This document shows positions 15,274 through 62,169 of a DNA stretch of 64,000 nt, piece after piece. Numbering within the stretch: position 1 is the stretch's first letter; every line of letters starts with the position of its first letter. The position numbers were made by a program, and so were the translations under genes. The stretch lies in assembly GCA_021786945.1 (NCBI GenBank), contig JAJYMK010000001.1, forward strand, positions 794 to 64,793, written 5' to 3'. Below the pieces are notes generated by a model that made no database searches, was not told where the DNA came from, and saw only the letters and a list, made by a program, of their open reading frames with translations. Origin of the DNA: a bacterium. Its GTDB lineage: Bacteria; Patescibacteriota; Minisyncoccia; UBA6257; 02-FULL-45-10c.

Positions 15274-16113
15274 CTAATTCTTTTTGGGTATATAACTGGT
15301 ACCCGGACCGCTGTTACCCACCCTTTCTATCACCCCCTGATCACACAACTTTTGGAGATCATATCTTAAAGTTCTTTCACTTACTCCCGGAAACTGACTA
15401 ACCATATCTTTTACCGACACTCTTCCAACTTGCCTAACCCTGTCTGCGATTAAATTTTGCCGAATTGCTGAATTGCCGCCGCCGCTAACTGCCCCATTTT
15501 CCGAAATTATCTTTTTTATAACCGGCTTACTAATAAATGATTCTTGTTCTGATTTTTTTATGGATTCTTCACCGTCGGAATAAGCTTTTGCAACAATTTC
15601 TTTTTCTTTATCTATTGTAGCTATTTGGGTTGAAATTGCAGAGGTCGCTTCTTTTGCCGAATTAATTTCTTTTAGAGAATCTTTAATTGCCGAATTACTC
15701 TGACTGCTGCCCTGTTCTATTACTGCAGGCGGCATTGAAAAAATAGATTCAAGATTTAAATGCTCTATTGCAAAAGGATTTGCAATTGCCGAATTGCCGA
15801 ATTCTTTAATTGCCGAATTAAAAACATCTAATTCCTTCAATAATATATTTGCGTTTACGGTTTCAATTTCATACAAAGTATGACCAATCCTAACCAACAC
15901 ATCTAAAGCAGAAATACTTTTAAAGGTCCTGATAAGAGAAACTTTGTCGGCAGCGTCTTCGGTAGCAACGGCCACATTTTCCAAAAACTCGAAACTTAAC
16001 CTCTCTATTCTATTTCTAAGCTCCTCCCTTTTTATATAAAAAGACACCCTATTGAGGGCGTATGAAATTTCACGAGCTTTTTTCTTTAAAAACTCAGGAG
16101 TTATGGAAGACAT
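15274..16113 (-). CDS. Hypothetical protein with C-terminal DeoR-type winged-HTH DNA-binding domain (putative transcriptional regulator).
   Basis: C-terminus RQNLIADRVRQVGRVSVKDMVSQFPGVSERTLRYDLQKLCDQGVIERVGNSGPG resembles the DeoR N-terminal HTH (..V.V.EL...F.VSE.TIRRDL..L...G.L.R.HGGA). N-terminal 200 aa helical, no recognisable family. Confidence 0.5.
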   Translation of the reverse strand: MSSITPEFLKKKAREISYALNRVSFYIKREELRNRIERLSFEFLENVAVATEDAADKVSLIRTFKSISALDVLVRIGHTLYEIETVNANILLKELDVFNSAIKEFGNSAIANPFAIEHLNLESIFSMPPAVIEQGSSQSNSAIKDSLKEINSAKEATSAISTQIATIDKEKEIVAKAYSDGEESIKKSEQESFISKPVIKKIISENGAVSGGGNSAIRQNLIADRVRQVGRVSVKDMVSQFPGVSERTLRYDLQKLCDQGVIERVGNSGPGTSYIPKKN

Positions 16114-16775: not shown

Positions 16776-17519
16776 CTATATCTTCCACTTAGTAAAAAAG
16801 AAAATGACGAAAAACGATAAAACCAAAACAATTAAATTTTTTATTATTAATTTTTTGGTTACCAAACCTCTAAAATGATTTACCAGAAAATCCATACCAA
16901 GATAAAAAATTACCATTGCCAAGGTTGCCGAATTTATAAAACCAAACGGCAACAAAGAAATGACCCAAACAATTTGCAACATAACAAATGCGAAAATTAA
17001 TGCGGCGAGATTATAACGCTTTGGAAAAGTTGCATAAAGCCAAAAGAGCCACTCGCGGACCAACAAAAACAAAACTAAAAAAATCGACAGAAATTTTACC
17101 GGAAAAAGAAAATATTTATCGGCTAGAAAATAAGACAAAAAAACCGAATAAACCAAAAAAAGATTTTTTATGTAATTCCATTCAAAACGATGGGTAAAAG
17201 CAAATTCCTTTATACCCAAAGAAATATAGAATAAAAACGAAAAGAAAATTACCGATAACAGTAAAAATTCGGGGTGGCTAAGCTGACTGATCCCATAAAG
17301 AGAAGAAGCCAAAAGAATTAGAAATGAAGAAAAGTTTTCTAGATTGTTTTGGGTATGATTGCGGAAATATAAAATAAAACAGGCTAAAAGAAAAACAAAA
17401 ATAGGCAGAGTCATGAAATCCGACGTCCTTACCCACAATAAAAGCCCGGCAAATATAAAACTCTTAAGAATTAATCGCAATTGAACGGTTTTCAAAACCG
17501 ATTTTAATTTTTGCACCAT
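16776..17519 (-). CDS. Polytopic membrane protein, hypothetical (real start probably the internal Met MTLPIF at 17417, which removes the overlap with clpB).
   Basis: About 7 hydrophobic helices. The annotated start overlaps the clpB 3' end by 56 nt. Starting at the internal Met avoids this. Confidence 0.45.
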
Positions 17520-20148
17520 TTTTTAATTCTCCTTTAATCATTTTATCGGCCAATTTATCAACTATGGTCTTTTGGATGAGCCTCTTTAAATGTCTGGCTC
17601 CATATTCAGGATTGAAACCATTTTCAACCAAATATTCCAAGGCATCTTTGTCTATATTTATTTTAAAGCCCTTATTTTCCATTTTTTTCTTAATAATATC
17701 TACCTGCAACTCTACAATTTTTCTGATATCTTCCTTTTTAAGAGGATTAAATACCACAATTTCGTCTATTCTATTCAAAAACTCCGGTTTAAATCTCTCC
17801 CTAAGAGCTTCCTGAATCTTATCTTTGAACTCCCCTTCCTTGGCTTCAGCTTCGGAATCAGCGGCAAAGCCAAGCGTAGAAAGCTGCCTCATATATGGAG
17901 CGCCTACGTTGGAAGTCATAATAATAATAGTATTTTTGAAGTTAACTACTCTGCCCTTACTGTCGGTTAAACGGCCGTTATCCAAAACCTGAAGCAGAAT
18001 ATTGAATACTTCGGGGTGAGCTTTCTCGATTTCATCGAAAAGAATAAGGCTATATGGCTTATGCCTGATAATTTCGGTTAATTGTCCACCTTCATCATAA
18101 CCAACATAGCCCGGAGGCGAACCAATGAGTTTGGAGGTAGAATGCTTTTCCATATATTCAGACATATCCACCCTGATTAAAGCCTTTTCGTCGTTGAACA
18201 TGAATTCCGCCAAAGCTTTTGCAAGCTCGGTTTTACCGACACCAGTGGGACCAAGGAACATAAATGAGCCAAGCGGCCTATTTTCATCGGAAAGTCCGGC
18301 TCTGGCACGCCTTAAAGCGCTGGCCACTGCTACAATTCCTTCATTTTGGCCGACCACCCTGCTTTCTAAAGCCTCTTCAATTTTTACCAACTTGGTACTT
18401 TCGGATTCCAACATTTTGGTAACCGGAATACCCGTCCACCTAGCCACAACACTGGCTACATCTTCTTCGTCCACCATTTCTTTTATGAATCTATCGGCGG
18501 TTTTCTTTATTTTGGACTTTCCGGACTTAGAGCTTTCCGTATCTTTCAATAAGTATTTCTTTTCGAAGGCCTTGTATTCTTTTTCTGCCTGAGGGAGCTC
18601 GCCGTAAATAATCTTGGCCACTCTTTCCAAATTAGCGTCACGCTCGGCCATTTCGGCTTCACGTTTCAAATCGTCTATTCTTTTTCTAAGCTTGTTATGA
18701 TCCTCAAAAAGCATTTTTTCCGCACGCCATTTTCCAGAAAGGGCCTCATTTTCTTCTTTGAATTTGGCGATTTCTTTATTAATGGCTTTCATTCTGGCTT
18801 TACTTGCAGCCGAACCCTCTTTCTGCAAAGCGGACTTTTCTATTTCTAATTGAGTAATTTTTCTCCTGACGTGATCTATTTCCTGAGGCAAACTTTCACT
18901 TTCCAATCTTCTGGCGGCGGCAGCCTCATCTATAAGATCCACGGCTTTATCCGGCAAAAATCTGTCGGAAATATATCTAGCAGACAAATTTACCGCGGCA
19001 ATAATAGCCTCGTCACTGATTCTCAAGCCATGATGGAGTTCGTATTTTTCTTTAAGACCACGCAAAATAGTAATGCTATCTTCAATAGTTGGCTCTTCAA
19101 CCAAAATAGGCTGGAAACGTCTTTCCAGAGCCGGATCTTTTTCAATATGCTTCTGAAATTCTTTTAAAGTTGTGGCGCCTATAGCATGCAGCTCGCCCCT
19201 GGCCAAAGCCGGCTTCAATAAATTTGAAGCATCCATAGCACCTTCGGCCGAACCCGCACCAACTATCGTATGAATTTCATCTATAAACAAAATCAATCTG
19301 CCGCTGGCATTTTGAATTTCCTTTATAAAAGCCTTCAATCTGTCTTCAAATTCACCACGGAACTTTGTACCCGCAATCAACGAACCAATATCTAATGCAA
19401 TGATTTCTTTGTCTTTAAGCGGTTCAGGCACATCTCCCGAAACTATTCTTTGGGCCAAACCTTCTACAACAGCGGTTTTACCAACACCCGGCTCACCTAT
19501 CAAAATAGGATTATTTTTTGTACGTCTGGAAAGAACCTGGATAATTCTTCTAAGCTCCTCTTCCCTGCCAATAACCGGATCAAGCTTACCCTGCTTAGCT
19601 TTGTCGGTAAGGTTTACCGCATATTTTTCCAAGACTTGAAATTTACTTTCCGGAGTTTCATCAACTATTCTGGTTGATCCCCTGAGCTGGGCAAGAACCT
19701 TAATTGCGCCTTCATAATTTACTCCGGCTTTCTGCAAAACCGTCTGGGCTTCGGACGGAGTCCATAAAATACCAACTAAAAGATGCTCGCAAGAAACAAA
19801 TTCATCTTTTTGGGCCAATGCAAATTTAGCGGCTTTTTCCAAAATCTGAATAAGCTCCTGAGAAAGATAAATCTGACTGATACTGGCTGCAGCCGGCGCA
19901 GAAGAAAGCATTTTGGGAAGTTTATTTAATTCACCCTCGATACTTTTATCCAAAAGATTAAGATTTACTCCGTTTTTGGTTAAAATGGGCTGGACCAAAG
20001 AACTGCTATCCGAAATTAAAGCAGACAACAAATGAAGCGCCTTGAATTCGCTGTGATTTCTAGAAGCGGCCAATTCCTGGCCATTTTGCAAAGCTTCTTG
20101 AGCTTTTATGGTAAAACGATTGTTGAAACCGTTGTTATTGTTTTTCAT
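17464..20148 (-). CDS. clpB: ATP-dependent chaperone ClpB (class 1 AAA+ disaggregase).
   Basis: 894 aa. Two Walker A motifs ([16 protein letters not shown]). Clp-N domain. Long middle coiled-coil between NBD1 and NBD2, which is ClpB-specific. No ClpP-binding IGF loop seen. Confidence 0.95.
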
Positions 20149-20258
20149 GGATTTTATACAAATTTACAAATAATAAAGGGTTACGAATGAATACGAATAT
20201 AAATACAGTGATTTAAAATACTAAAACCCTCTTTTATTATTTTATCATAATAAAAAAA

Positions 20259-20285
20259 TTAGCACTCTGTCAATTAGAGTGCTAA
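20259..20285. promoter_or_regulatory. CIRCE operator (HrcA binding site) TTAGCACTC-N9-GAGTGCTAA, perfect match, about 110 nt upstream of clpB.
   Basis: Sequence read directly: ttagcactc tgtcaatta gagtgctaa. An extra right half-site with identical spacer flank (tcaattagagtgctaat) lies at 20367-20383. A 10-bp inverted repeat cgacaagctc/gagcttgtcg (20291-20300 / 20352-20361) sits between them. Confidence 0.85.
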
Positions 20286-20407
20286 TAGTTCGACAAGCTC
20301 ACTATAAAATACAGGGCTAAAAATTTATATAAAAATAGCTATTCTCGTCCCGAGCTTGTCGAGGGATCAATTAGAGTGCTAATTTAATATTTTTGCCTAA
20401 AACAATT

Positions 20408-20653
20408 TTACAATTTATTGATATCGGTATTAAGGCTGTTCATTTCGGTATTTAAATCACCCAAATTCATGGAATCTAAACCCTGCTGAACATCGGCGGA
20501 AATATTTTCCGTAGCAGCTCCCCCACTAACACCTTCGGTGCCCATAGGAGCCTTAGAGCCCATACTCATATAAATTGCAATAGCAACAACAACTAGAACT
20601 ACAGCCAATACAATTAACCAAACCATCTTCTTAGAATTTTTTTGTGGTTCCAT
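20408..20653 (-). CDS. Small single-pass membrane protein, hypothetical.
   Basis: 81 aa. TM helix WLIVLAVVLVVVAIAIYM. Gly/Ala-rich exposed tail. Confidence 0.4.
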   Translation of the reverse strand: MEPQKNSKKMVWLIVLAVVLVVVAIAIYMSMGSKAPMGTEGVSGGAATENISADVQQGLDSMNLGDLNTEMNSLNTDINKL

Positions 20654-21643: not shown

Positions 21644-22894
21644 TTAAATATTTCTTTCCTCCAGGGTAACATCCAATTTTATTTCCTTTCCATTTCTTAA
21701 AACGGTTAAAGAAATTTTATCCCCTACCTGATATTTCTGAATCAAGGAGGATAAGGAATTATTTTCATCTATTTTTACCCCATCAACCTCGGTAATGATA
21801 TCTTCGGCTTGCAGTCCTGATTTTTCCGCAGGAGAATTCTTTACGACAGCGGGACCATCCTGATTTCCGCGGACTAAAGCTCCTCGCTTTACCGATAATT
21901 TTTCTTTTTCGGACAATTGATCGTCTAGCGCCAAATATCTAACACCCAAATAAGGAGTCAAAATCTTGCCACTCTTTTTTACCGATTCAATATCATTTTT
22001 TGCTTTATTTATAGGAATCGCAAAACCAACACTCTGAGCCCCAGAAACAATAGCGGTATTCATACCTATTACTTCGCCCTTCAGATTCAAAAGCGGGCCG
22101 CCGGAATTTCCCGGATTGATAGCGGCATCAGTCTGAATCAAACCATCAAGATTTTCCGCGCTCCCCAACCCATCAGAAGCCGTAATTTTTCTGTATAAGC
22201 CCGAAATAACTCCGGTAGAAACCGTATTCCTAAATTCACCCAAAGCGTTGCCTATAGCTATAGCCGTCTGACCAAGTTTCAAAGAATCGGAATCGCCCAA
22301 TTTTAACGGCTTCAAACCATTAACAGAAATTTTCAATACGGCGAGATCCTGAACGCTGTCTCTGGCTAAAACCTCTGCATCGTATTTTTTACCATCATTA
22401 GTCAAAACCGTATATTCAGCTTTTTCATCCGAAACAACATGTTTGTTGGTAAGGATAAGCCCGTCTTCCGAAATGACAAATCCACTACCACCGCCAACCT
22501 CCTGTTTCTTTGTTCCTTTTTGGCAGGGCTGAGTAAAATTTAATCCTCCGCCGAAAAATTGCTGAAATTCTTCCGGTAAATTTTCATAAGGGTTATAAGG
22601 GCACTGCTCAATAACCGGCAAATCTTTGGAAACAATAATAGAAACCACCGACGGAGAAGCTTCTTCGACTGCTTTTATGACCGCCTGCTCATGAGCATCT
22701 TCGGAATCATACATAACGACAGCTTTCGGAGCTTCTATTTTTGTCTCAACCGAAGATTTATTCAAAAACGGCAAATATTTTTGAAGATAATCGGTAAAGC
22801 CCGCCTGAACCACCGACAGATTAGATAAATAAGCTAAGCTAACCAAAACTAAGGCGACCATTAATAAAGAAAAAAACTCTTTCTTATTATTCAT
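21644..22894 (-). CDS. htrA: HtrA/DegP-family periplasmic serine endoprotease with C-terminal PDZ domain.
   Basis: Catalytic Ser in GNSGGPLLNLKGEVIGMNTA, His in LTNKHVV, Asp in DLAVLKI. PDZ at the C-terminus. N-terminal membrane anchor. Confidence 0.9.
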   Translation of the reverse strand: MNNKKEFFSLLMVALVLVSLAYLSNLSVVQAGFTDYLQKYLPFLNKSSVETKIEAPKAVVMYDSEDAHEQAVIKAVEEASPSVVSIIVSKDLPVIEQCPYNPYENLPEEFQQFFGGGLNFTQPCQKGTKKQEVGGGSGFVISEDGLILTNKHVVSDEKAEYTVLTNDGKKYDAEVLARDSVQDLAVLKISVNGLKPLKLGDSDSLKLGQTAIAIGNALGEFRNTVSTGVISGLYRKITASDGLGSAENLDGLIQTDAAINPGNSGGPLLNLKGEVIGMNTAIVSGAQSVGFAIPINKAKNDIESVKKSGKILTPYLGVRYLALDDQLSEKEKLSVKRGALVRGNQDGPAVVKNSPAEKSGLQAEDIITEVDGVKIDENNSLSSLIQKYQVGDKISLTVLRNGKEIKLDVTLEERNI

Positions 22895-35319: not shown

Positions 35320-36360
35320 ATGCCGGATAAAAAAACCAAAATAATTTTATCTATAGAAACCAGCTGTGACGAAACCGCCATCGCTGTATTGAAATGCTCC
35401 GGAAACATAAAAAAACCGATTTTTAAAATTATCGCCAATGAAGTTTCTTCACAAATAAAAATACATAGGCCTTTCGGCGGAGTTGTTCCCAACCTGGCAA
35501 AACGCGAACACATAAAAAATCTTCCGAAGATTTACCAAAAAATAAAAAAAGAAGTTGTTGGGCTAGAAAGGAAAATTGATCTGGTAAGTGTAACAGTAGG
35601 GCCGGGATTGGAACCGGCGCTTTGGACAGGAATCACTTTTGCCCAAGATTTGGCGCAAAAAATAAAAAAGCCATTAATAGGAGCCAATCATATGGAAGGG
35701 CACCTCTTCGGTTTTTTACTTTCGGAGCAGGAAAATAAATTAGATTTTCCGGCTATCGGACTGGTGGTGAGCGGCGGACACACCGTTCTTCTGAAAATGA
35801 CCAGTCTGACCAAATGGGAAAAACTAGGAGAAACAGTCGACGATGCCGTCGGCGAAGCTTTTGATAAAGTCGCCAGAATTCTGGATCTTCCCTACCCCGG
35901 CGGACCGGAAATTGAGAGACTCGCCCTGAGCCTGCCGAAGGGAGAAAAACCATCTATAAACTTTCCCAGACCAATGCTGAATCAACACAACTACGACTTC
36001 AGTTTTTCCGGATTAAAAACTTCGGTGCTTTATTATTTGCGAGACAACCCCAAAACCAATAAAGCCAATATTGCCGCTTCTTTTCAGCAAGCCGCAATAG
36101 ACGTATTAACTAAAAAAGCCATGAAAGCCGCTGAAGAATTTTCCGCCAAATCAATAATTCTCTGTGGGGGTGTAGCCTGCAATAAAACACTGCGTGAAAC
36201 AATCAGAAAAGAATCCGAAAAAAGAGGTTTAAGTTTTTTTGCCCCGGAAATGAAATTTAATACCGATAATGCCGCTATGATAGGCGCAGCTACATATATT
36301 CATATCCTGGCCAAGAAAAAATCACTTAAAATTGAAGCTGATTCAACTTTGAATCTATAA
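35320..36360 (+). CDS. tsaD: tRNA N6-adenosine threonylcarbamoyltransferase TsaD (Kae1/OSGEP family).
   Basis: LSIETSCDETAIAV (metal-binding). GVACNKTLR. ASKHA fold length 346 aa. Confidence 0.9.
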   Translation: MPDKKTKIILSIETSCDETAIAVLKCSGNIKKPIFKIIANEVSSQIKIHRPFGGVVPNLAKREHIKNLPKIYQKIKKEVVGLERKIDLVSVTVGPGLEPALWTGITFAQDLAQKIKKPLIGANHMEGHLFGFLLSEQENKLDFPAIGLVVSGGHTVLLKMTSLTKWEKLGETVDDAVGEAFDKVARILDLPYPGGPEIERLALSLPKGEKPSINFPRPMLNQHNYDFSFSGLKTSVLYYLRDNPKTNKANIAASFQQAAIDVLTKKAMKAAEEFSAKSIILCGGVACNKTLRETIRKESEKRGLSFFAPEMKFNTDNAAMIGAATYIHILAKKKSLKIEADSTLNL

Positions 36361-36438: not shown

Positions 36439-38664
36439 ATGAATAAAGAACTTTCTCCGCAATACGACTCCAAACAAATCGAGGACAATATCTATAAAAT
36501 ATGGGAAGAATCGGGATATTTTAATCCGGATAATCTGCCTACAACCCACAAAAAACCGTTTACCATAATAATGCCGCCGCCGAATGCCAATGGCTCTCTT
36601 CATATCGGCCACGCGTTGTTCGTAACACTCCAGGATATAATGATCCGCTATCAAAGAATGAGGGGCCGAAAAACACTCTGGCTTCCGGGTGCAGACCATG
36701 CCGGCTTCGAAACCCAGGTTGTTTATAATAAAAAATTGGAAAAAGAAGGAAGATCTTTCTGGGAAATTCCCCGGGAACAGCTTTATAACGAAATAAAGGA
36801 TTTCACTTTGGCCAATAAAAAATACATGGAAGGCCAGCTCAAAAAGCTCGGCGCCAGCTGTGATTGGTCCAGGGAAAAATTTACATTAGACGAAGATGTC
36901 AAAAAAGTTGTCTGTGAAACATTCGAAAAACTTTACAATGATGGCTTGGTTTACCGCGCCGAAAAGCCGGTAAACTGGTGCACCAAACACCAAACCACCC
37001 TTTCCGATCTCGAAATAAAATATGAAGAAAAACAAGACAAGCTTTACTATATAAAATACAAAGTTTCTCCTTCGGCAAGCTCGGGACAAGTTGATGAATA
37101 TATCGAAGTGGCCACCACCCGTCCGGAAACAATTCCGGCAGATATCGCCGTAGCCGTACATCCCAAATCTAAATGGGCCAAGTTTATCGGCAAAAAAGTT
37201 ATCAATCCCCTGACCAAAAAAGAAATTCCGGTTTTATCCGACATGGTAGTAGATCTTACTTTTGGAACCGGAGCTTTAAAAATTACTCCATTCCACGATC
37301 CCGTAGACTTTATGGTCTGGCAAAATCACAAAAATGAAATAACCATTCAGCCGTTTTCGGTAATAAACCAGTACGGAAAAATGACCGCGGAAGCCGGGAC
37401 GGATTTGGCCGGATTAAAAGTCAAAGAGGCCAGGGAAAAATCCATTGAGCTTTTGCGCCCAGTCCTAGTTAAAGAACCGGAAGACTATAAACACCAAGTT
37501 TCTGTCTGCTACAAATGCGGCACAACAATCGAGCCCAGAATAATGATGCAGTGGTTCGTTAAAATGACGGAAAAACCGGCGGGTAATCCTTCGGCAAAGC
37601 TCAGGACAAGAAAATCTTTGCGCGATCTCGCTGTAGACGCGGTAAAATCAAAAAAAATAAAATTTATTCCTGCCAGATTTGAAAAAATATTCATGCACTG
37701 GATGAAAAACCTGCATGACTGGAATATTTCCAGGCAAATTGTCTGGGGTATACAGATACCTGTTTGGTACTGTCAGGATAAAACTAACGAAATCTGCAAA
37801 AAAAATGATGGAGTGATAGTTAGTTCTAAAAATCCGGAAAAATGCCCACACTGTGGATCCAATAATTTAAAACAAGAAACCGACGTATTTGATACCTGGT
37901 TCTCTTCGGGACAATGGCCATATGCCACATTAATGACCACAAAAGAATGCGATTTTAAAAAATATTATCCGACCGACGTCATGGAAACCGGCTGGGATAT
38001 TTTGTTCTTCTGGGTAACCAGAATGATAATGTTCGGGCTTTATCGTACCGGTAAAATTCCTTTTAAAGACGTCTATCTTCACGGATTAGTACGTGATAAG
38101 GACAGGCAAAAAATGTCCAAATCCAAAGGCAATGTAATTAATCCCTTGGAAGTCGCGGAAATCTACGGCACCGACGCTGTTCGAATGGCGCTTATTGTCG
38201 GTACCACGGCCGGAAACGATCCGATAATTTCCGAGGACAAAATCCGTGGTTACAGAAATTTCGCCACAAAAATATGGAATGCTTCCCGTTTCGTCCTGAT
38301 GAATTACAAAAAAATTGATGTTAAACCAAAACTTACATCAGCCGACAAAAAAAATCTTAAAGATCTTGAAAGTGCCAAGAAAAAAATAACCAAATATTTG
38401 GATAAATACGACTTTAACCATGCCGCCGAAACCGCCTATCATTATTTCTGGCACACCTTGGCCGACAAAGTGATAGAACAAAGCAAACCAAGAATAAAAT
38501 CGGAAAATCTAGCCGACGCTGCAGCCGCTCAAGAAACTTTGATAAAAATTTTGGGAGAATCCATGAAGCTCCTGCATCCATTCATGCCGTTTATTACGGA
38601 ACAGATATATCAAATACTTCCTACTACTAAAGAAAAGTCTCTTTTGATGATAGAAAAGTGGTAA
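36439..38664 (+). CDS. valS: Valine--tRNA ligase (short form without C-terminal coiled-coil).
   Basis: HIGH motif PPPNANGSLHIGHA. KMSKS motif KMSKSKGN. ValRS-type TLQDIMIRYQRMRGRKTLWLPGADHAGFETQ. 741 aa. Confidence 0.9.
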   Translation: MNKELSPQYDSKQIEDNIYKIWEESGYFNPDNLPTTHKKPFTIIMPPPNANGSLHIGHALFVTLQDIMIRYQRMRGRKTLWLPGADHAGFETQVVYNKKLEKEGRSFWEIPREQLYNEIKDFTLANKKYMEGQLKKLGASCDWSREKFTLDEDVKKVVCETFEKLYNDGLVYRAEKPVNWCTKHQTTLSDLEIKYEEKQDKLYYIKYKVSPSASSGQVDEYIEVATTRPETIPADIAVAVHPKSKWAKFIGKKVINPLTKKEIPVLSDMVVDLTFGTGALKITPFHDPVDFMVWQNHKNEITIQPFSVINQYGKMTAEAGTDLAGLKVKEAREKSIELLRPVLVKEPEDYKHQVSVCYKCGTTIEPRIMMQWFVKMTEKPAGNPSAKLRTRKSLRDLAVDAVKSKKIKFIPARFEKIFMHWMKNLHDWNISRQIVWGIQIPVWYCQDKTNEICKKNDGVIVSSKNPEKCPHCGSNNLKQETDVFDTWFSSGQWPYATLMTTKECDFKKYYPTDVMETGWDILFFWVTRMIMFGLYRTGKIPFKDVYLHGLVRDKDRQKMSKSKGNVINPLEVAEIYGTDAVRMALIVGTTAGNDPIISEDKIRGYRNFATKIWNASRFVLMNYKKIDVKPKLTSADKKNLKDLESAKKKITKYLDKYDFNHAAETAYHYFWHTLADKVIEQSKPRIKSENLADAAAAQETLIKILGESMKLLHPFMPFITEQIYQILPTTKEKSLLMIEKW

Positions 38665-43220: not shown

Positions 43221-43310
43221 GGAGGCGTGGCTGAGCGGTCGAAAGCAGCACACTGCTAATGTGTTGAGGGGGAAACCCCTCCGAAGGTTCGAATCCTTCC
43301 GCCTCCGCCA
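43221..43310 (+). tRNA. tRNA-Ser (anticodon GCU), class II, CCA encoded. Integration site of the downstream element.
   Basis: Acceptor GGAGGCG/CGCCTCC, D-arm GCT-GAGCGGTCGAA-AGC, anticodon stem GCACA/TGTGT with loop CTGCTAA, variable stem GAGGGG-GAAA-CCCCTC, T-arm GAAGG-TTCGAAT-CCTTC, then G-CCA. Confidence 0.9.
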
Positions 43311-44830
43311 GATTTCCAACTTTGAACCGTAGAAACTGCAAGGGTTTTCGAGCCCTTTGATGGTTTCGGTGGTTCGAGTTTGGAGACTTGCAAATCCATA
43401 AGAACATCAAAGACTGGCGTCCATATCGGCGTCAGTTTTTGATTACTGACAGTGAACCCCTCAAAACAAAGCTTCATCAATGTGCGTTTTTGATGCATTG
43501 AGCTGGTATTGAACACCTTGTCGGCATGATCCGTGAAGTCCAGTAATTCATTAAATTTCTGCACGAATTTGTCAGACTTGCCCTCAAGCACCCCTAAGCG
43601 GTCCTGATACATTTCCTTCTCCTTTAAAAGCTCGTCCTGAATCTTTATAAAGACATCGGCGTCAATAATACGCTGGGAACGATCCACAACGATATTGCGA
43701 ATTTGTTGCTGAACTCTTATAAGCTCACGCTTGAGACTCTTGCGTTCTTTGTCCTCCTGCTCAAGCCTTTCTTTGGCAAAATATTGAAAGTAAGAATCAA
43801 GCACCTTCTTAAACTTATCAGGTAGATGAACCCGTGATAAATGGTTTGCGACCTGTTCCTCAACGACCTCCCATCTCATGTATTTGCGTTCAGTGCAGTT
43901 TTTGTCCTGCCAGTGAGTGCATGAATAGTAAAGATGACCTTTCTGCATCTGTCCGCAGAGTGTAGACCCACACACTGCACATCTCATAAACCCTGCCATA
44001 GGATACGAATGCTTGCGAGTACGATCGGCGTAATGATTGTGCTGTTGGACTACTTCCTGAACATCATCAAAAAGCTTCTTTGAGATCAAAGGCGGAAAAT
44101 TTGCCTGACAAGTGGCTGATCGAGTTTTTATAAGACCGTAGTAAATTGGATTGCAAAGAAAATGCTCAATTGATTTGCGATTAACATGTTTGCCGGATTT
44201 GCTTTTGAGACCTCGCTTATTAAGTTCGGCCGACAGAGAGTCGTATGAATACTTGCCGGTGGCGTAGAGTTCAAAAGCCAGTTTTATATATGGGGCCCGA
44301 ATGTTATCGATAATAAGAGATTTAGTCTTTTTATCGTTTGTGTACCCAATTGGTGCGTATCCAGGGAATCTGCCACGCTCTACGGCCTCTTTAAGACCTT
44401 TCCTGACCTCCCAGCTGATGTTTTGAGATGTCCACTGGGCAATGGAAGCCATGATGTTCTCAACCAGCTCTCCAGAAAAAGACTCATCGAACTGCTCGAC
44501 TACTGAGACAAGTTTGGCATCATGCTTTTTAAGCATCATCTTAATGGCGGCGTAGTCGGCCACATTACGGCACATACGATCAAGCTTGTGGACTAAGATG
44601 ACATCAACCTTACTATCAGTTTTTGCTCGATGAAGCATTTTCTGAAGCTGTGGACGATCAGTCGTTCTAGCTGATTCGCCCTTTTCCTCATAGATACCAT
44701 CTGGGAGTAAATTCCAGTGATGATCCATTCCGTATTTTTGGCACGCTTTGACTTGTGCCGGAATACTCAATTCTCGTTCGGCCTGACGAGAGGTGGAAAC
44801 ACGGCCGTAGATTAAATAATTTGTACTCAT
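43256..44830 (-). CDS. Large serine recombinase (integrase). The C-terminal about 18 codons are encoded by the complement of the tRNA-Ser 3' half.
   Basis: N-terminal resolvase catalytic domain with YGRVSTSRQ (Ser nucleophile). Recombinase domain. Zinc ribbon CAVCGSTLCG...CTHWQDKNC. Coiled-coil. 524 aa. Confidence 0.85.
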   Translation of the reverse strand: MSTNYLIYGRVSTSRQAERELSIPAQVKACQKYGMDHHWNLLPDGIYEEKGESARTTDRPQLQKMLHRAKTDSKVDVILVHKLDRMCRNVADYAAIKMMLKKHDAKLVSVVEQFDESFSGELVENIMASIAQWTSQNISWEVRKGLKEAVERGRFPGYAPIGYTNDKKTKSLIIDNIRAPYIKLAFELYATGKYSYDSLSAELNKRGLKSKSGKHVNRKSIEHFLCNPIYYGLIKTRSATCQANFPPLISKKLFDDVQEVVQQHNHYADRTRKHSYPMAGFMRCAVCGSTLCGQMQKGHLYYSCTHWQDKNCTERKYMRWEVVEEQVANHLSRVHLPDKFKKVLDSYFQYFAKERLEQEDKERKSLKRELIRVQQQIRNIVVDRSQRIIDADVFIKIQDELLKEKEMYQDRLGVLEGKSDKFVQKFNELLDFTDHADKVFNTSSMHQKRTLMKLCFEGFTVSNQKLTPIWTPVFDVLMDLQVSKLEPPKPSKGSKTLAVSTVQSWKSGGGGRIRTFGGVSPSTH

Positions 44831-53529: not shown

Positions 53530-53970
53530 TTAATAAATTTTTGGGTTCAAAATCCCAGCCGAGAAAAGAATTACTAGGAGGCTAAGGGGGCCGGGTGATG
53601 GATTAATTTGAAATTTTTGATTACATGAATCACGATCAGAAAAGTTTGTTTTGTTTTTGAAATATCCAAACAGAATAAGCGAAAAGAGTAAGACAAGTAT
53701 TAAAGAAGTCATTCCGTCTGTTTTGATAGTCGCATTAAGAAATTGGGATCTTTCTTGTATGTGCTGGTCGAATGTTTCGCTTACGCAACTATTATCACTG
53801 CAAACTGGTGCACTAAAAGAACAGCCATCTGGTAAGCATATATTCCAAGAAAAAGACAACAGCACCACAAAAGATGTCAAGATAAGAAAAGTGGTAATTA
53901 TGTTGTTTTTTAAGAATCTATGCATATGAATAATTATTCGGGAATATATTCCTGATGACCACAATGACAA
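53530..53970 (-). CDS. Cys-rich membrane protein, hypothetical.
   Basis: 146 aa. Two TM segments. CLPDGCSFSAPVCSDNSC. Confidence 0.35.
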   Translation of the reverse strand: MSLWSSGIYSRIIIHMHRFLKNNIITTFLILTSFVVLLSFSWNICLPDGCSFSAPVCSDNSCVSETFDQHIQERSQFLNATIKTDGMTSLILVLLFSLILFGYFKNKTNFSDRDSCNQKFQINPSPGPLSLLVILFSAGILNPKIY

Positions 53971-54449
53971 GCTGTGCCATCGTTTGTGGACATACTAAAA
54001 TACGACCGCTTAGCGACAATAATTAAATCCGCAAAATTAGGATGGAACGACAAAACTTGCGAATCGGCTTGTAGTGATCGTATGAGCTTTCGGTCCGCTT
54101 CATCCGGTGTTGGGTCAATAGAGCCCGGATGGTTCAATAGAATAATAAACTTCTTGGCCAAAAATAGAGAGAAGTAATGCCACAGCATTTGAGTATCAAA
54201 ATTCTTGGGAGATGATCCGAGGAAAACTTGATGACCGAGGAATAGATTTTTGTCATCAAGATAAATTCCAATAATCTTGGAAACATTCTCGTTTTCCAAG
54301 TCCTTAAGAAATTTATATAAGTCCTCTGGATCACGAACTTGACCCTGAATAGGTAGTTCAACATCAGTCTCAACGATTTCAAATTTCTTCAAATATCGTT
54401 TACCTTCCTGATGTATATTTTCCTCTTTTTTATCTTCTTGTTTTTTCAT
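53934..54449 (-). CDS. RadC-like JAB/MPN domain protein.
   Basis: LLNHPGSIDPTPDEADRKLIRSL matches the RadC JAMM motif H.HPSG.P.PS..D. 171 aa. Confidence 0.65.
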   Translation of the reverse strand: MKKQEDKKEENIHQEGKRYLKKFEIVETDVELPIQGQVRDPEDLYKFLKDLENENVSKIIGIYLDDKNLFLGHQVFLGSSPKNFDTQMLWHYFSLFLAKKFIILLNHPGSIDPTPDEADRKLIRSLQADSQVLSFHPNFADLIIVAKRSYFSMSTNDGTACHCGHQEYIPE

Positions 54450-54468
54450 AGCGATTTCTTATTAAAAT

Positions 54469-55539
54469 TTATATTTTTACATATCTCGTACCACGGCCAC
54501 GCCCGACACGCTTGACCTTACCGAGTTCAACCAGACGATCCAATGCTTGGCGAACCGTACCGAGGGCAATGTCTGTTGCCTTGACGATTTCGCCGGGAGC
54601 CGCCTCGCCGACACTTGAGATATGCTTCCATACCTCAAATTGTTTTGGTGAGAGAGTGTCTTCCACCCTTTCCTCTTCGAGATATGATAATGCTTTTGTT
54701 GCTTGTTCTCTGACAGCTGAAAGAAAAAAATTCAACCAAGGAGAGATTGTGTCGTGATCAGTCTTGAAAGTTTCTTGTGATTTTCGTAGAGCGATATAGT
54801 ATTCATCTTTTCTGCGTTCAACTATTTGCTCGTGAGAAACATACTGAATGAATTGATATCCCGACTGTAAAAGCAATAGATTTGTAAGGACACGAGAAAG
54901 ACGACCATTACCATCTTCGAATGGGTGGATTTTCAAAAACTCAACGATAAAGTTTGCGATGATTAGGAGGTTATGAAAACGATTCTTCTCAAAAGCATCA
55001 TTTGTCCAATCAACAAGCTCATTCATTTCTTTGCCGGTAAGATAAGCTGGTGTGGTTTCAAACATTATTTGAGCAATGTTTCCGTCCAGTCCAAGAACAC
55101 CGACAGTATTCTCTTTCTTTTTATAACCACCACGATGAGCATCGTCTTTGTGTGAATACTTAAGAAGTTGATTGTGAAGTGAAGTGATCAAACTTTCTCT
55201 CAATGGTAAATTCTGATAACTATCAAAAACATTCTGAAGCGTTTCTAAATATCCCTGAACCTCTTGAGAATCACGATCGGCAAATTTTGAGACAGTAAGA
55301 CCTCTCATAACTTTCTCAACCTCTTCATCGGTCAATCTCGCACCCTCAATACGAGTGGAAGCACCGGCTGAAGTGATCAGTGTAGATTTTTTTAGATTGG
55401 TAATGGCTTGCGGAGTCATTCGTAGCCCAGATTTAAATTCACCACGAATTCCGTCAATCTCAGCCAAAAGAGCCACGATCTGTGGATCGGGATTTTTTAT
55501 TCGATGGTCAAATTTGTTGAAAATGTCGTCCATATTCAT
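54469..55539 (-). CDS. Fic/DOC family protein (AMPylator-type) with C-terminal winged HTH.
   Basis: Fic motif HPFEDGNGRLSRVL (HPFx[DE]GNGR). 356 aa. Confidence 0.9.
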   Translation of the reverse strand: MNMDDIFNKFDHRIKNPDPQIVALLAEIDGIRGEFKSGLRMTPQAITNLKKSTLITSAGASTRIEGARLTDEEVEKVMRGLTVSKFADRDSQEVQGYLETLQNVFDSYQNLPLRESLITSLHNQLLKYSHKDDAHRGGYKKKENTVGVLGLDGNIAQIMFETTPAYLTGKEMNELVDWTNDAFEKNRFHNLLIIANFIVEFLKIHPFEDGNGRLSRVLTNLLLLQSGYQFIQYVSHEQIVERRKDEYYIALRKSQETFKTDHDTISPWLNFFLSAVREQATKALSYLEEERVEDTLSPKQFEVWKHISSVGEAAPGEIVKATDIALGTVRQALDRLVELGKVKRVGRGRGTRYVKI

Positions 55540-55860
55540 AGTTTTGGTTGATAATTTAACGCTATAAGTTATATAGTGGATTATAATGGATTACAGCCGT
55601 AAATGCAAGTCAAAGACCTATAAATATCGAAAAGTCCCGAATATGGAGGTTTTATTGGAATATTAGGCTTAAAATTGGGGTTCAAGTACTGGTATTTCCA
55701 ATGTGAATGAAATTATGTTATAATTTAGTCAACTGGTAATGCTTTGCGTTAGTAGCCGTGAAATATGACAGCTTGCTGCTTTTTTTCAATATACAGGTAT
55801 AATAGCGTTAGCTTAGGTAACAGCAAGCTTCATAAAAAACATCCTTTAAATTTATATCTT

Positions 55861-56826
55861 ATGAACAAACAAATTAGTAAAAAATATAAGTCGCTCGACT
55901 TGTTTGCCGGAGTCGGTGGAATAAGGATGGGTTTTGAAAAAGCTGGGTTTGAGACTGTCTTTGGAAATGATTTTGATGCATATTGCAAAATTACCTATGA
56001 TTTAAATTTCAAGGATGTCCCATTAACGGTTGCTGATATTTCAAAAGTTAAAAGCTCCGATCTGCCAAATTTTGATATTCTCCTTGGAGGATTTCCGTGC
56101 CAGCCTTTTTCAATCGCAGGATATCGTAGGGGGTTTCTTGATACAGGACGGGGTGATTTATTTTTTGAAATTGTAAGAATTTTGCGTGACAAAAAACCAC
56201 GAGCAGTTTTTCTTGAAAATGTAAAAAATTTAAAATCACATGATGGTGGAAAAACTTTTAAGATTATCTCTGATGCCCTTGAGGATCTTGGCTATCATGT
56301 AAAGGTAAAAATACTTAATAGCGTAGAATACGGAAATGTGCCTCAGAACAGAGAAAGAGTTTATATTGTTGGTTTCAAATCAAAAAAACAATATGATGCC
56401 TTTGAATTTCCCGAGCCCGTAAAACTAAGCAAAACTATCGCCGATATTCTTGAAAAGAATGTAGACGAAAAATATTATTATACAAATTCACCACTTTATC
56501 CGGAACTCAATAAAACAATCAAAAAAAATAATGTTGTATACCAGTGGCGTCGCATTTATGTTCGGGAAAATAAGAGTGGAGTTTGTCCAACCCTAACTGC
56601 GAATATGGGCATGGGCGGTCACAATGTTCCCCTGATCAGAGATCATAAGGGAATCCGCAAATTAACCCCACGGGAATGTGCAAGGTTCCAAGGATTTCCT
56701 GACAGTTATAAACTTCCAAAAGATTTTCCTGATACGAAGCTTTATAAACAATTTGGTAATTCAGTTACCACAACCGTGATCGAAAGAGTTGCTAAAAAAA
56801 TAAGCAAGGCTTTAGATGTAAAATAG
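55861..56826 (+). CDS. DNA (cytosine-5)-methyltransferase.
   Basis: Motif I LDLFAGVGGIRMGF. Motif IV GGFPCQPFSIAG. Motif VI FLENVKNL. The track start 55765 is probably too early. I prefer the Met (MNKQISKK) at 55861. Confidence 0.9.
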   Translation: MNKQISKKYKSLDLFAGVGGIRMGFEKAGFETVFGNDFDAYCKITYDLNFKDVPLTVADISKVKSSDLPNFDILLGGFPCQPFSIAGYRRGFLDTGRGDLFFEIVRILRDKKPRAVFLENVKNLKSHDGGKTFKIISDALEDLGYHVKVKILNSVEYGNVPQNRERVYIVGFKSKKQYDAFEFPEPVKLSKTIADILEKNVDEKYYYTNSPLYPELNKTIKKNNVVYQWRRIYVRENKSGVCPTLTANMGMGGHNVPLIRDHKGIRKLTPRECARFQGFPDSYKLPKDFPDTKLYKQFGNSVTTTVIERVAKKISKALDVK

Positions 56827-56827
56827 C

Positions 56828-58009
56828 ATGTTTTTAGAAAGACAATCACAAAGTCAGGTTGGTTATTACGAACGGCTCCTAAAGGCCGTTGGTTCGTTGT
56901 CGAATCTTTTCTCAGAATCTCCGGAACCATATCTTGCATCACGAGCTACGGAAAATTTATTTTGTAAAGCTTTTGAAGCTCAGAATCTTTCTCGTTCAGA
57001 CGCTTCAGCTGATGCGTCTAAGGGAAAAATTGGATTTGGTATAAAAACATTTCTTGAGGGAAATGGTAGAACAATGCAAAAGGTTGCGGAATTTAATAGT
57101 GACCATTTGATGTTTGGCACTCTTCCGCCCGAGGAAAAAGTAAGAAAAATCGCTGAACTTAGAAATGAGCGTATTTTAACCACGAAGCGTATTTTTGGTC
57201 TGGATGATCTTATTTATCATTGTATAACTCGTAAGGTGGGGAAAATTATTGTATACGAAACTCCCGCCCCACTTATAGATATAAACAGCATAAGAGATGT
57301 TAAGGTCACCGCAAGAGGTGCTACGATACAGTTTTCTGATTCTAACGCTGAATATTCATTTAATAATTCAAAAAGCACTCTTTATAAAAGATTTATAACT
57401 CCCGATCGAGTACTTCTTGATGTGCCTGTAAGGATTTTAACAGACCCATTTTCTGCTGTAGAAAAATTAATATCAGAAGCTGGTCTTATCTTTGCTCCAG
57501 TCAAAGTTTTACCGCATGTATTCTTACCACTATACTCTATGAGGGGTGGTGTTAAGCGCGTACCAGAGAAAAGCGGATTGAACCAATGGAATGCAGCCGG
57601 TCGGCCACGCGATCCAAATGAAATATATATTCCAATTCCTGTGTGGATTCACCGTAAATTTGACGGTTTTTTTCCTCCTCGGGATGGAGCATTCGAACTT
57701 ACGCTCCCAGACGGAACCACTATGAGTGCCAAAGTGTGCCAAGATAATTCCAAGGCATTAATGAGTAATCCTAATTCAGCATTGGGTAAATGGTTATTAA
57801 GAGATGTCTTAAATTTGAAAGAAAAAGAGCTTTTGTCATATGATAAACTTCAAACCATTGGCCTTGATACGGTTGTAATTTACAAGGTCGATAATGAACA
57901 TTTTGATATTGATTTTACTCGTGTGGGTTCTTATGAGAAATTTGAAATTGAAAATGGTGAAAATAACGAATCAGAAACCGACACAACCCAAGATCAAGAC
58001 GATGAATAA
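56828..58009 (+). CDS. Putative Type II restriction endonuclease cognate to the C5-MTase (assigned by context).
   Basis: 393-aa ORF, stop-start overlap with the MTase (TAGCATG). No recognisable family motif by eye. The call rests on genomic context. Confidence 0.4.
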   Translation: MFLERQSQSQVGYYERLLKAVGSLSNLFSESPEPYLASRATENLFCKAFEAQNLSRSDASADASKGKIGFGIKTFLEGNGRTMQKVAEFNSDHLMFGTLPPEEKVRKIAELRNERILTTKRIFGLDDLIYHCITRKVGKIIVYETPAPLIDINSIRDVKVTARGATIQFSDSNAEYSFNNSKSTLYKRFITPDRVLLDVPVRILTDPFSAVEKLISEAGLIFAPVKVLPHVFLPLYSMRGGVKRVPEKSGLNQWNAAGRPRDPNEIYIPIPVWIHRKFDGFFPPRDGAFELTLPDGTTMSAKVCQDNSKALMSNPNSALGKWLLRDVLNLKEKELLSYDKLQTIGLDTVVIYKVDNEHFDIDFTRVGSYEKFEIENGENNESETDTTQDQDDE

Positions 58010-58304
58010 ATTATGCACAGAAAAAACTATTGTGCTGTTTTTTGAAAAGTAGTATAATGCAATTAACAATCAAATAGAGTTATGCCTCACGAGGCATCCT
58101 GAAAGGAATTCCAAGTTTAAGAGCTTGCGATTAATTATCACTTTTTGTGGTAATCAATCGCAAGCTCTTTTTTGTTTGATTGTTGCCAGCTCTCTGCCAC
58201 GCCCAATAACGGTCGACATCCAATCTTGTTAATCGACCTCACACTGCCCGAGCTCAAGGGTTCGGGTAATAAAAATATACAAGGGATGTGGGCGTGCCAG
58301 AGAT

Positions 58305-59342
58305 TTGAGAATTAAAAAAAATATGTTTAGTAAATTTCAAGCATTGCCGAGTTACTTCGGCGGAAAAAGAAAACTGGTCAAGCACATTTTTAAGCCGATC
58401 AAAAAGACCGAGGGAATTTTTATTGATGCATTCTTGGGAGGCGGATCAGTGAGTCTCTACGCCAAAGCAAAAGGATACAAAGTTATAAGCAACGACATCG
58501 CCTTCCGGTCAGTGATCATCGGTCGAGCGATTATCGCAAACAATTCCGTCAAACTTGAATCCGAGGATTTAGCGAGATTATTTTTTGAAACAAAACACGA
58601 CAGCTTTATAAAAAAGAATTATTGTCCAAAAGTATTCACCACCAAGATTGCCGAATTTTTAGATAACGCTTTCGCTTCTGCCAACAAAGTGGAAAACGAA
58701 ACAAAACGCTACCTTTTATTGCATTTATTGATTAAGTTTATTCTTTCTTGTCGACAGTTTGGAAAGTTTACACACACCCGGGACACGCTGGATTTGGAAG
58801 CTCGAAAATGGGAGTGGCCACTCCGGTCCAAGTCTCACGCCCCAAAGAATTTGCGGATGATACAGAATCCAATGATGACTTTGGAAAAATTAAAAGACGA
58901 AATTAATCATGGTATTTTTGATAACCATCAAGACAATGAAATACACCAACAGGATGTGTTTGATTTTCTCAAACAAGTTAAAGGTAATGTTGTTTATTTT
59001 GATCCTCCTTATCCTGGCTCTTCTGCCTACGAAGTTGAGTATGGGATTTTAGATAACATTCTCGCCAACAAAAAGCTGGATAATAAACCGAGTGGTTTCT
59101 CCAACAACGATGCTGATGAATTTTTAGAAAAAATGCTTGAGTCGGCAAAACATATTCCACAGTGGATCATCTCGCTCGGACAAAACAAAGAGGATGTCGG
59201 AATGAAGCCAGAAAAACTTTTGGCGATGGTGCAGAAACATCGCAAAGCCGAAGTGCAGATGATGGAACACAAATGGAGTGTGGCCAACGCCGGAGGTCGA
59301 AACCAAAGTAATAACATCGAATACATGATCGTAACTTTATGA
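58305..59342 (+). CDS. DNA N6-adenine methyltransferase, Dam/D12 class (orphan, phage-type).
   Basis: Motif I-like LPSYFGGKRKL and FLGGGSV. Catalytic DPPY (YFDPPYPGSSAY). Confidence 0.85.
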   Translation: MRIKKNMFSKFQALPSYFGGKRKLVKHIFKPIKKTEGIFIDAFLGGGSVSLYAKAKGYKVISNDIAFRSVIIGRAIIANNSVKLESEDLARLFFETKHDSFIKKNYCPKVFTTKIAEFLDNAFASANKVENETKRYLLLHLLIKFILSCRQFGKFTHTRDTLDLEARKWEWPLRSKSHAPKNLRMIQNPMMTLEKLKDEINHGIFDNHQDNEIHQQDVFDFLKQVKGNVVYFDPPYPGSSAYEVEYGILDNILANKKLDNKPSGFSNNDADEFLEKMLESAKHIPQWIISLGQNKEDVGMKPEKLLAMVQKHRKAEVQMMEHKWSVANAGGRNQSNNIEYMIVTL

Positions 59343-60148
59343 AAAAAGAAAAAACCGAAATCAAAATAGTGAAAATAAAAGAGTGCGTTCCGAACTGGTG
59401 GAATCCGAACGAAATGAACGCTCGCCAATTTTCATCACTTAAAAAAGCTTTGACTAAATACGGACAAACCAAACCAATACAAGTGGGAGTCTGGCCGAAC
59501 ATGAAAGTCAAAGACGGCTATGTGATCGTGGGCGGATATCACACTTGGAAAGTGCTTGGCGAACTTGGCGAAGCCGAGATTGAAGCCAATATCCACAATT
59601 TCAAAAATGAGGACGAAGCCAAACTTTATGGGTTAACCGATAACATTCACGGTTCAAACCAACAAATAAAACTCGGCAAGCTCGCCTACGAGTTAACCCA
59701 AAACGGATATTCAATCAAAGACATTGCTCAGAATCTTGGCGAGGAAGATATCAATGTCAAAGATGCCCTCGACTTAGTGAAAGATGAAATAGAAAAGAAA
59801 ATGATTGAGCTTAAAAAAGCCGAGCGAGAAAATACTGTCGTTTTGAATTTCATCGTAGACAAAGACCCAGAAGCATCAGCCGATGAATTTATAAAAGCCG
59901 TAACTGCATTTGCGAAAGCAAAAGGCATAAAGGTCGAGAAAGCAGTCAAAGATATAAATAAGCAAAGAGAAACTATCGCTCTAATGAGTTTCAATGTGAC
60001 CAATCCGCAAAAAGGCGTGATAGATGAAGCGTTAAATACCCTGACAAAAGAAACCAAAATGACCGAGAGTGAGGCGATCGCAGAGGTGTGTAGCCGATTT
60101 ATAAATACACAAAACGGCAACATTCAGCAACAAACCGCAACAAAATGA
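59339..60148 (+). CDS. ParB-like nuclease (ParB/Srx N-terminal) domain protein.
   Basis: KIKECVPNWWNPN...KPIQVGVWPN..DGYVIVGGYHTWKVLGELG parallels ParB-N (I.PNP.QPR... PI.V..... Y.LI.GERR.RAA..LG). 4-nt overlap with the Dam gene. Confidence 0.6.
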   Translation: MKKEKTEIKIVKIKECVPNWWNPNEMNARQFSSLKKALTKYGQTKPIQVGVWPNMKVKDGYVIVGGYHTWKVLGELGEAEIEANIHNFKNEDEAKLYGLTDNIHGSNQQIKLGKLAYELTQNGYSIKDIAQNLGEEDINVKDALDLVKDEIEKKMIELKKAERENTVVLNFIVDKDPEASADEFIKAVTAFAKAKGIKVEKAVKDINKQRETIALMSFNVTNPQKGVIDEALNTLTKETKMTESEAIAEVCSRFINTQNGNIQQQTATK

Positions 60149-60567
60149 ACAAAAAAGTTGATATCAAATGCACCAAGTACCAAGAAGCGATTCGCCTTAA
60201 GTATAACGGCGAGTCTTATCCTGTTATTGCCCGAAAGCTTAAAACTCCGGTATCAACAGTTGAGAAATGGTTTGCTTTTGGCGGTTTGCTTAAGGAGGAA
60301 TACGAAACTTATAGAGATGGACAGAACGAAATCAGAAAAAGCCAAGCCGAGTGGATACTGCACAAAAGCGTTGAGACTGCCTCATCGATGCTCGTTGCCC
60401 TTATGGGGAGTCCCGATGACGGCGTAAAATTTCGTGCGTGCAAAGAGATACTCGACCGTGAACTCGGAAGCCCCAAAGAAACCATCGAACATAAAGGATT
60501 ATATGGAACAGGCCTAAGCTATGAACAAATACTCAGAAAAGCCAGAGAGAGACCACCCGACGGTTAA
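60145..60567 (+). CDS. Putative terminase small subunit (HTH protein preceding TerL).
   Basis: 140 aa. HTH-like YPVIARKLKTPVSTVEKW. Position immediately upstream of, and overlapping, the large terminase gene. Confidence 0.45.
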   Translation: MNKKVDIKCTKYQEAIRLKYNGESYPVIARKLKTPVSTVEKWFAFGGLLKEEYETYRDGQNEIRKSQAEWILHKSVETASSMLVALMGSPDDGVKFRACKEILDRELGSPKETIEHKGLYGTGLSYEQILRKARERPPDG

Positions 60568-62167: not shown

Positions 62168-62169
62168 AT

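Follow-up and report, generated by a model that had tools for sequence, protein, structure and literature searches.

A probable HrcA-type operator in the clpB promoter of a Patescibacteria bacterium, with an upstream half-site likely left by an insertion

At the dnaK and groESL promoters of Bacillus subtilis, heat-shock control depends on the CIRCE element, of consensus TTAGCACTC-N9-GAGTGCTAA, which in that species lies downstream of the promoter. The identical consensus, likewise at the promoter of a chaperone gene, was found in the locus described here, but the target gene is clpB, the host belongs to the Patescibacteria, the -35 hexamer lies inside the 9-nt spacer of the palindrome, and no repressor gene turned up in the ~80 kb of this genome that were covered. 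In Mollicutes, clpB, lon and dnaK are under CIRCE, including double and decaying copies of the element; for example, the clpB and dnaK promoters of Spiroplasma melliferum each carry two CIRCE copies, some of which have decayed (PMC5138195). The present locus shares with these the control of clpB by CIRCE in a reduced genome, yet the organism is unrelated, and the extra copies in Mollicutes are full or decaying palindromes, whereas here an exact half operator with its spacer is found beyond a putatively inserted hairpin element. Tandem CIRCE pairs located at groES in high-GC, actinobacteria-like metagenome contigs also feature more than one CIRCE-derived element (46–48 nt apart); however, both members of those pairs are complete inverted repeats, one downstream of the other, with no foreign DNA between them, unlike the arrangement at this clpB.

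The window (that is, the whole 64-kb stretch of DNA that was analysed) harbours clpB on its minus strand (17464..20148; 894 aa), as annotated by Pfam and NCBIfam. The product carries the Clp_N domain, two AAA modules, AAA_lid_9 and ClpB_D2-small, and its match to TIGR03346 spans positions 1–851 of 853 with 1222 bits, 10 under the cut-off of 1232. The neighbours of clpB are all on the minus strand, with an 81-aa membrane protein (20408..20653, co-directional with clpB), a 299-aa protein and HtrA encoded upstream. ClpB-based retrieval with one genome per species returned Patescibacteria metagenome-assembled genomes (MAGs) only, which are labelled as Harrisonbacteria, Paceibacterota, Minisyncoccia or 'Saccharibacteria' and of which the best two share 85–86% ClpB identity with the window; moreover, the window reads cleanly in genetic code 11. 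Both observations point to a reduced, Paceibacteria-like genome of the candidate phyla radiation (CPR) and not to a mollicute. An initial annotation of this DNA had called CIRCE control of clpB typical of Mollicutes-like reduced genomes; the reduced genome stands, although the host is not a mollicute. An identical 600 nt was recovered in two assemblies made independently from different samples (L001 from ENA and L002 from Logan), thus the structure with the duplicated half-site described below is not an assembly artefact.

Several features around clpB were observed in passing. A 279-aa protein encoded downstream of clpB combines a C-terminal DeoR-type winged helix with NSAI(K/R) repeats, and homologues are found downstream of clpB in 48 of the 80 ClpB-selected Patescibacteria loci, in the same orientation among the matches listed. 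Among the same 80 loci, HtrA is encoded upstream of clpB in 49 and a 247-aa membrane protein is found at clpB in 36; this synteny is independent of CIRCE. The side loci of the clpB stress cluster lie at 15274–16113, 16776–17519 and 21644–22894, all on the minus strand. The 279-aa protein, for which no relative was found in the PDB, is a candidate lineage-specific regulator of this cluster; its interpretation as a disguised HrcA was rejected, as the recognition helix alone aligns (E=0.77). Elsewhere in the window, a large serine recombinase gene (43256–44830) abuts a tRNA gene (43221–43307), and a prophage-like region that extends from ~53900 to 64000 and beyond (L176) encodes RadC, Fic, DNA methylases, a restriction enzyme and ParB, together with SU10-type capsid and adaptor genes.

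A CIRCE without mismatch, TTAGCACTCTGTCAATTAGAGTGCTAA, is located at 20259..20285 (no strand), 111–137 nt upstream of the clpB ATG. Even at a tolerance of three mismatches the window has no other match, and the pattern had matches in none of 100 dinucleotide shuffles. Including the flanking bases (20258–20286) the stem reaches 11 bp. A promoter scan placed the -35 hexamer TTGACA of clpB at 20268..20273 (minus strand), within the CIRCE spacer, and the -10 hexamer TATGAT at 20244..20249 (minus strand), 18 nt past the -35; this TTGACA-18-TATGAT promoter agrees with the consensus at 11 of 12 positions. Thus, the palindrome lies at a chaperone gene and overlaps its -35, and the promoter-proximal CIRCE arm constitutes the first 9 nt of the 18-nt spacer before TATGAT. 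From the position of the promoter and the sequence, a clpB leader with a small hairpin is predicted on the minus strand (20149..20243), with ~89 nt between the ATG and the inferred transcription start. Given its perfect match and its retention in relatives, the palindrome is presumed to be an HrcA operator. With TTGACA forming the centre of the CIRCE spacer in what would be a sigma-70 promoter, a repressor dimer on the palindrome would mask the -35 and shut out RNA polymerase; its dissociation during protein-folding stress, as extrapolated from what is known of HrcA and CIRCE, would then switch clpB on.

Conservation of this arrangement was gauged in six sequences (the window plus L003–L007) that were picked by ClpB similarity alone and share 73–86% ClpB identity. 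Mean column identity is 0.98 over the 27-nt CIRCE versus 0.48 over the 60 nt upstream. The TTGACA -35 is invariant in all of 21 Patescibacteria clpB promoters (15 of them retrieved through the CIRCE pattern), and the 18-nt spacing with a TATNNT box occurs in the six sequences selected by ClpB and in most of the 21. As L083–L175 were ascertained with the CIRCE pattern itself, conservation of CIRCE is measurable in L003–L082 only. Under a relaxed pattern, 18 of 80 related species have a CIRCE-like site upstream of clpB; away from these sites, the relaxed pattern matched only four times in 1.45 Mb of the loci, and those matches that were listed are not real CIRCE. That the arrangement is kept in relatives while the flanking DNA has diverged shows it to be under selection and argues for a real operator-promoter. 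Furthermore, the pattern TTRGCACTC-NN-ATTGACA-GAGTGCTAA matched 93 metagenome stretches, where it is located upstream of groES, hsp20, an rpoH-like sigma factor gene and clpB of several other lineages; a -35 inside CIRCE is therefore not a design special to CPR. Judged by its sequence, the site in the window is an ordinary CIRCE operator-promoter, newly placed at a Patescibacteria clpB.

A second element derived from CIRCE lies further upstream. The 17-mer TCAATTAGAGTGCTAAT occurs exactly twice, once as part of the intact CIRCE (20270..20286) and once as an orphan half operator (20367..20383), the start-to-start distance being 97 nt. The orphan copy comprises one CIRCE arm plus 8 nt of the spacer and ends in TTGA; in the sense of clpB (minus strand), it is the arm farther from the promoter that was duplicated, together with 8 nt of spacer (ATTAGCACTCTAATTGA), and the orphan lies that same 97 nt further upstream than the intact CIRCE. 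Read in this direction, the stop codon of the 81-aa gene is followed by 25 nt, the orphan, an 80-nt segment, the intact CIRCE (ATTAGCACTCT-AATTGAC-AGAGTGCTAAT), TTTTTTTAT, TATGAT, the leader and the ATG. Between the 17-nt copies is a perfect inverted repeat of 11 bp (arms TCGACAAGCTC at 20290–20300 and GAGCTTGTCGA at 20352–20362) with 51 nt between the arms. The initial annotation had described a perfect CIRCE upstream of clpB, a half-site duplicated together with its spacer flank and a 10-bp inverted repeat between the copies: the first two are confirmed by the present results, and the inverted repeat is present but 1 bp longer than had been described.

The nearest relatives present this locus in what appears to be its empty state. 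In the ClpB tree the window is sister to L093 (ClpB 91% identical), whose only CIRCE occupies the position of the window's orphan and which lacks both the 80 nt and the duplicate. L003, L004, L118, L147 and L175 likewise feature a single CIRCE and neither insert nor duplicate, and in all six of these lineages CIRCE is located 18–30 nt past the 81-aa stop codon. The orphan of the window thus stands where the relatives have their single CIRCE.

Extra half-sites were found in two further lineages. L126 carries three left halves that are 99 and 97 nt apart; in the ClpB tree it falls among L004, L118, L147 and L175 (92–95% identical), all of which are without a duplicate. L171, from the other clade, has one orphan copy 147 nt upstream and a 129-nt insert with a long hairpin. 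Its orphan flank and the sequence flanking the intact L005 CIRCE are homologous, so that the orphan marks the ancestral position of CIRCE. In the window, L126 and L171 alike, the boundary falls each time right after ATTGA(C), a hairpin-forming insert follows it, and each insert begins with CCC. Among ~150 full CIRCE sites scanned, isolated exact extra half-sites were found at these three clpB promoters only. The placement of the window and of L126 in the ClpB tree indicates that their half-site events were independent, and the comparison points to at least three independent and young half-site events (in the window, L126 and L171).

Such recurrence might instead reflect selection in favour of an upstream half-site, and the initial annotation had indeed suggested an extended or cooperative HrcA site. 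According to this reading, the orphan would bind an HrcA subunit and cooperate with the main CIRCE, for example by looping, leading to tighter repression. The copy is exact over all 17 nt, and upstream half-sites have arisen in three lineages, in the same orientation and always upstream. However, HrcA binds the full inverted repeat as a dimer and the orphan is without a partner arm; the nearest relatives lack the half-site, the three spacings (97, 99 and 147 nt) share no helical phase, and the copies are attached to hairpin inserts that are unrelated or variable. A role of the orphan as an auxiliary operator is therefore improbable, and the suggestion of an extended site is not supported, given the empty sites (L093, L003, L004, L118, L147 and L175), the independent origin of the comparable copies in L126 and L171, and the footprint-like shape of the duplication. 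Most likely, the second half-site represents an insertion scar and not an extended or a second functional operator.

The reading that we favour, and hold to be likely as a whole, is that of an HrcA-type operator in the sigma-70 promoter of clpB, with the half-site as the footprint of an insertion. An 80-nt palindromic element would have landed in the CIRCE spacer right after ATTGA, and a duplication of 17 nt would have regenerated the operator on the promoter side, leaving the original distal arm stranded 97 nt upstream as the orphan. The duplication may have arisen as one long target-site duplication; alternatively, a short duplication of TTGAC may have come first, with the palindrome then restored by snap-back copying from the arm that survived.

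The presumed element (20287..20366) consists of terminal inverted repeats with an AT-rich centre, and is absent in L093, L003 and L004. It folds, as DNA, more stably than shuffled sequences (z=-3.9) and has no open reading frame or coding capacity. Significantly similar sequences were found in the 78 nt immediately upstream of CIRCE in L006 (z=7.1), in the second insert of L126 (L126b; z=5.8) and in L160 (z=4.7). As L006, L126 and L160 share only 74–87% ClpB identity while the sister of the window lacks the segment, a mobile or repeatedly acquired element fits better than vertical inheritance. Moreover, the arms of the insert recur in L010 and L040 within a short hairpin of 36 nt that has a direct repeat on either side (TTGACAC and ATTGAC), the downstream repeat in both loci being the -35 of a TTGACA-N17-TATAAT or TATAGT promoter. 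The 80-nt insert thus appears to be a member of a palindromic repeat family of other Patescibacteria. It is the combination of terminal inverted repeats, empty sites and TTGAC-flanked short copies that leads us to read the 17-nt repeat as an insertion footprint at the TTGAC of the spacer.

The insert is similar to MITE- or REP-like elements in that it is non-coding, has 11-bp terminal inverted repeats, lies between direct repeats, is missing from the corresponding site in relatives and has related copies in other genomes. It differs from them in that the direct repeat is 17–20 nt at CIRCE versus 6–8 nt elsewhere (6–7 nt for the short copies of the same hairpin family), that no second copy was found in the same genome and that no transposase is known. 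Searches of the window, its extensions and the other loci by blastn-short and nhmmer found no dispersed copies, and the element occurs only once in the ~80 kb covered of this genome; the only arm-like motifs found elsewhere in the window are at 35928, 37071 and 37591. A partial match at 37072 was rejected as a copy of the element because it falls in frame within a valS-like gene for a class-I aminoacyl-tRNA synthetase. An enrichment of the 12-mer arm was also set aside, being confounded by a conserved coding motif of clpB. A scan for hairpins enclosed by direct repeats gave too much noise for statistics but did reveal flanking repeats of 6–8 nt in other palindrome families.

Other repeats were noted in these genomes. 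The motif CCTTCGGCAAGCTC(A/G)GGACAAG, of the same family as the insert arms, occurs at 37066–37094, 37585–37610 and 35928; copies inside the valS-like reading frame (36439–38664) encode SPSASSGQV and NPSAKLRTR, and no mention of such peptide signatures of the repeat family was found in the papers searched. Further small palindromic families, such as CCCGTTAGA...TCTAACGGG (flanked by 6–8-nt direct repeats) and GTCATTGCGAG...CTCGCAATGAC, are common in the intergenic DNA of Patescibacteria, with examples at L074:7554, L171:4674 and L008:70 and in the leaders of L143, L147 and L008. In L005 (3750–3925), L101 and L163, which are clade-B relatives, structured inserts of a different sequence, consisting of long imperfect inverted repeats (arms of ~20–30 bp enclosing 90–130 nt), are positioned between the upstream terminator and CIRCE. 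Hairpins rich in ATTCG/CGAAT were seen in the clpB leaders of the window (20175–20200), L022 (3870–3980, with nine ATTCG/CGAAT copies), L074, L118, L120 and L099; across the 80 unbiased loci, clpB leaders showed no enrichment of this motif (0.58 versus 0.47 expected).

A local rearrangement that involved no mobile element was also considered. Palindromes are hot spots for template switching, and slippage or template switching at CIRCE might have duplicated local DNA, which would agree with the lack of another 80-nt copy in the ~80 kb of this genome. Nevertheless, the relatives with an empty site contain nothing from which the 80 nt could derive, and the segment resembles both CIRCE-adjacent segments in distant lineages and a hairpin family at other promoters; a tandem duplication, furthermore, would give two copies of the 80 nt, whereas one is present. 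Such an origin thus carries little probability.

A bolder extension of the insertion reading concerns the recurrence at the same boundary. Hairpins of Patescibacteria might insert preferentially at the TTGAC of -35 boxes, with CIRCE being rebuilt each time by a duplication of 17–20 nt, perhaps through snap-back, and with orphan halves left upstream; the clpB CIRCE would then be a recurrent, self-repairing hot spot (in the window, L126 and L171), and the orphans might titrate or recruit HrcA. This is offered as a tentative proposal that is rather doubtful at present.

The palindrome may have a further role at the end of the upstream transcription unit. Directly after the CIRCE hairpin is a T-run, TTTTTTTAT (20250..20258, minus strand), and together they form a terminator-like site (20286..20258) with 11 pairs, four of them GC, a 7-nt loop and a TTTTTTTATTA tail. 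In the clade of the window (L003, L004, L093, L118, L126, L143, L147 and L175), CIRCE is followed by TTTTTTT and lies 18–30 nt past the upstream stop codon, and no further hairpin is present there. Members of clade B (L005, L007, L099, L151, L159 and L160) have their own GC hairpin and T-run before CIRCE, and no T7 after it. Thus, in the clade of the window the CIRCE palindrome with T7 probably doubles as terminator of the htrA/299-aa/81-aa unit. A search of Rfam matched the CIRCE hairpin (20255–20305, minus strand) to the Staphylococcus sRNA sau-6072 at 25.8 bits and E=0.009, which is below the gathering threshold of 50; the sau-6072 family probably contains a CIRCE-like hairpin.

The terminator-like structure raises the question of an RNA-level role for the duplication, in which the orphan would pair with the proximal arm in read-through transcripts from the 81-aa gene and would have been selected as part of a longer terminator or insulator. 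The minus-strand RNA fold of 20245–20410 shows just this pairing, nested around an inner stem of 11–12 bp (-40.1 kcal mol−1; z=-3.8), and is followed by the T7 run. Yet the simple CIRCE hairpin with T7 already serves relatives that are without the insert, the pairing is automatic once one arm of a palindrome has been duplicated, and the inserts of L126 and L171 differ in structure. Selection at the RNA level is accordingly improbable.

The presumed repressor was sought around clpB and in relatives. With B. subtilis HrcA as tblastn probe, hrcA (cognate family PF01628) was not found in the window, as the initial annotation had reported, nor in any of the Patescibacteria DNA fetched (all 80 genome loci plus the metagenome loci). 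It is also absent from the ~16 kb of additional flanking DNA obtained by extending the window by 10 kb in both directions, which brings the coverage of this genome to ~80 kb and encodes only glycosyltransferases on one side and a prophage on the other. The probe is 99% identical to the real B. subtilis HrcA, and it detects hrcA next to hsp20 in other phyla. A search of a protein collection with HrcA, which was not directed at CPR, returned Bacillaceae matches only. Likewise, no groEL, dnaK or grpE was found in the window or in the fetched Patescibacteria loci. In one contig, L165, groES is preceded by a CIRCE that matches the one in L005, a MAG with the label Candidatus Harrisonbacteria, base for base; L165 was not counted as CPR given its HisA-like reading frame, as judged from the N-terminal sequence. 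A literature search found nothing relevant on HrcA in Patescibacteria, CPR or Saccharibacteria. As no hrcA, groESL or dnaK of this lineage was found in the DNA covered, an HrcA repressor is assumed here; the main argument for a cognate HrcA, an indirect one, is that the exact consensus is kept beyond the needs of a hairpin. That HrcA has been lost and the palindrome persists merely as terminator of the upstream gene and carrier of the -35 would agree with hrcA being seen in no fetched Patescibacteria locus and with the terminator-like hairpin and T-run, but is very improbable, as a terminator needs the stem only whereas both 9-nt arms match the consensus across 73–91% ClpB identity, including clade-B relatives with a separate upstream terminator.

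To our knowledge, almost nothing has been written on transcriptional control in CPR. The locus reported here would extend the classical HrcA/CIRCE heat-shock circuit to clpB in this radiation, by a compact design in which one palindrome would serve as operator, as carrier of the -35 and probably as terminator. It also calls for caution in motif-based prediction of regulons, since exact partial copies of an operator can be insertion scars. The only unusual aspect of the locus is the recurrence of boundary-precise insertions at the palindrome; if the hot-spot proposal is true, clpB promoters of Patescibacteria would provide a natural example of mobile hairpins that target -35 boxes and of repair guided by a palindrome.
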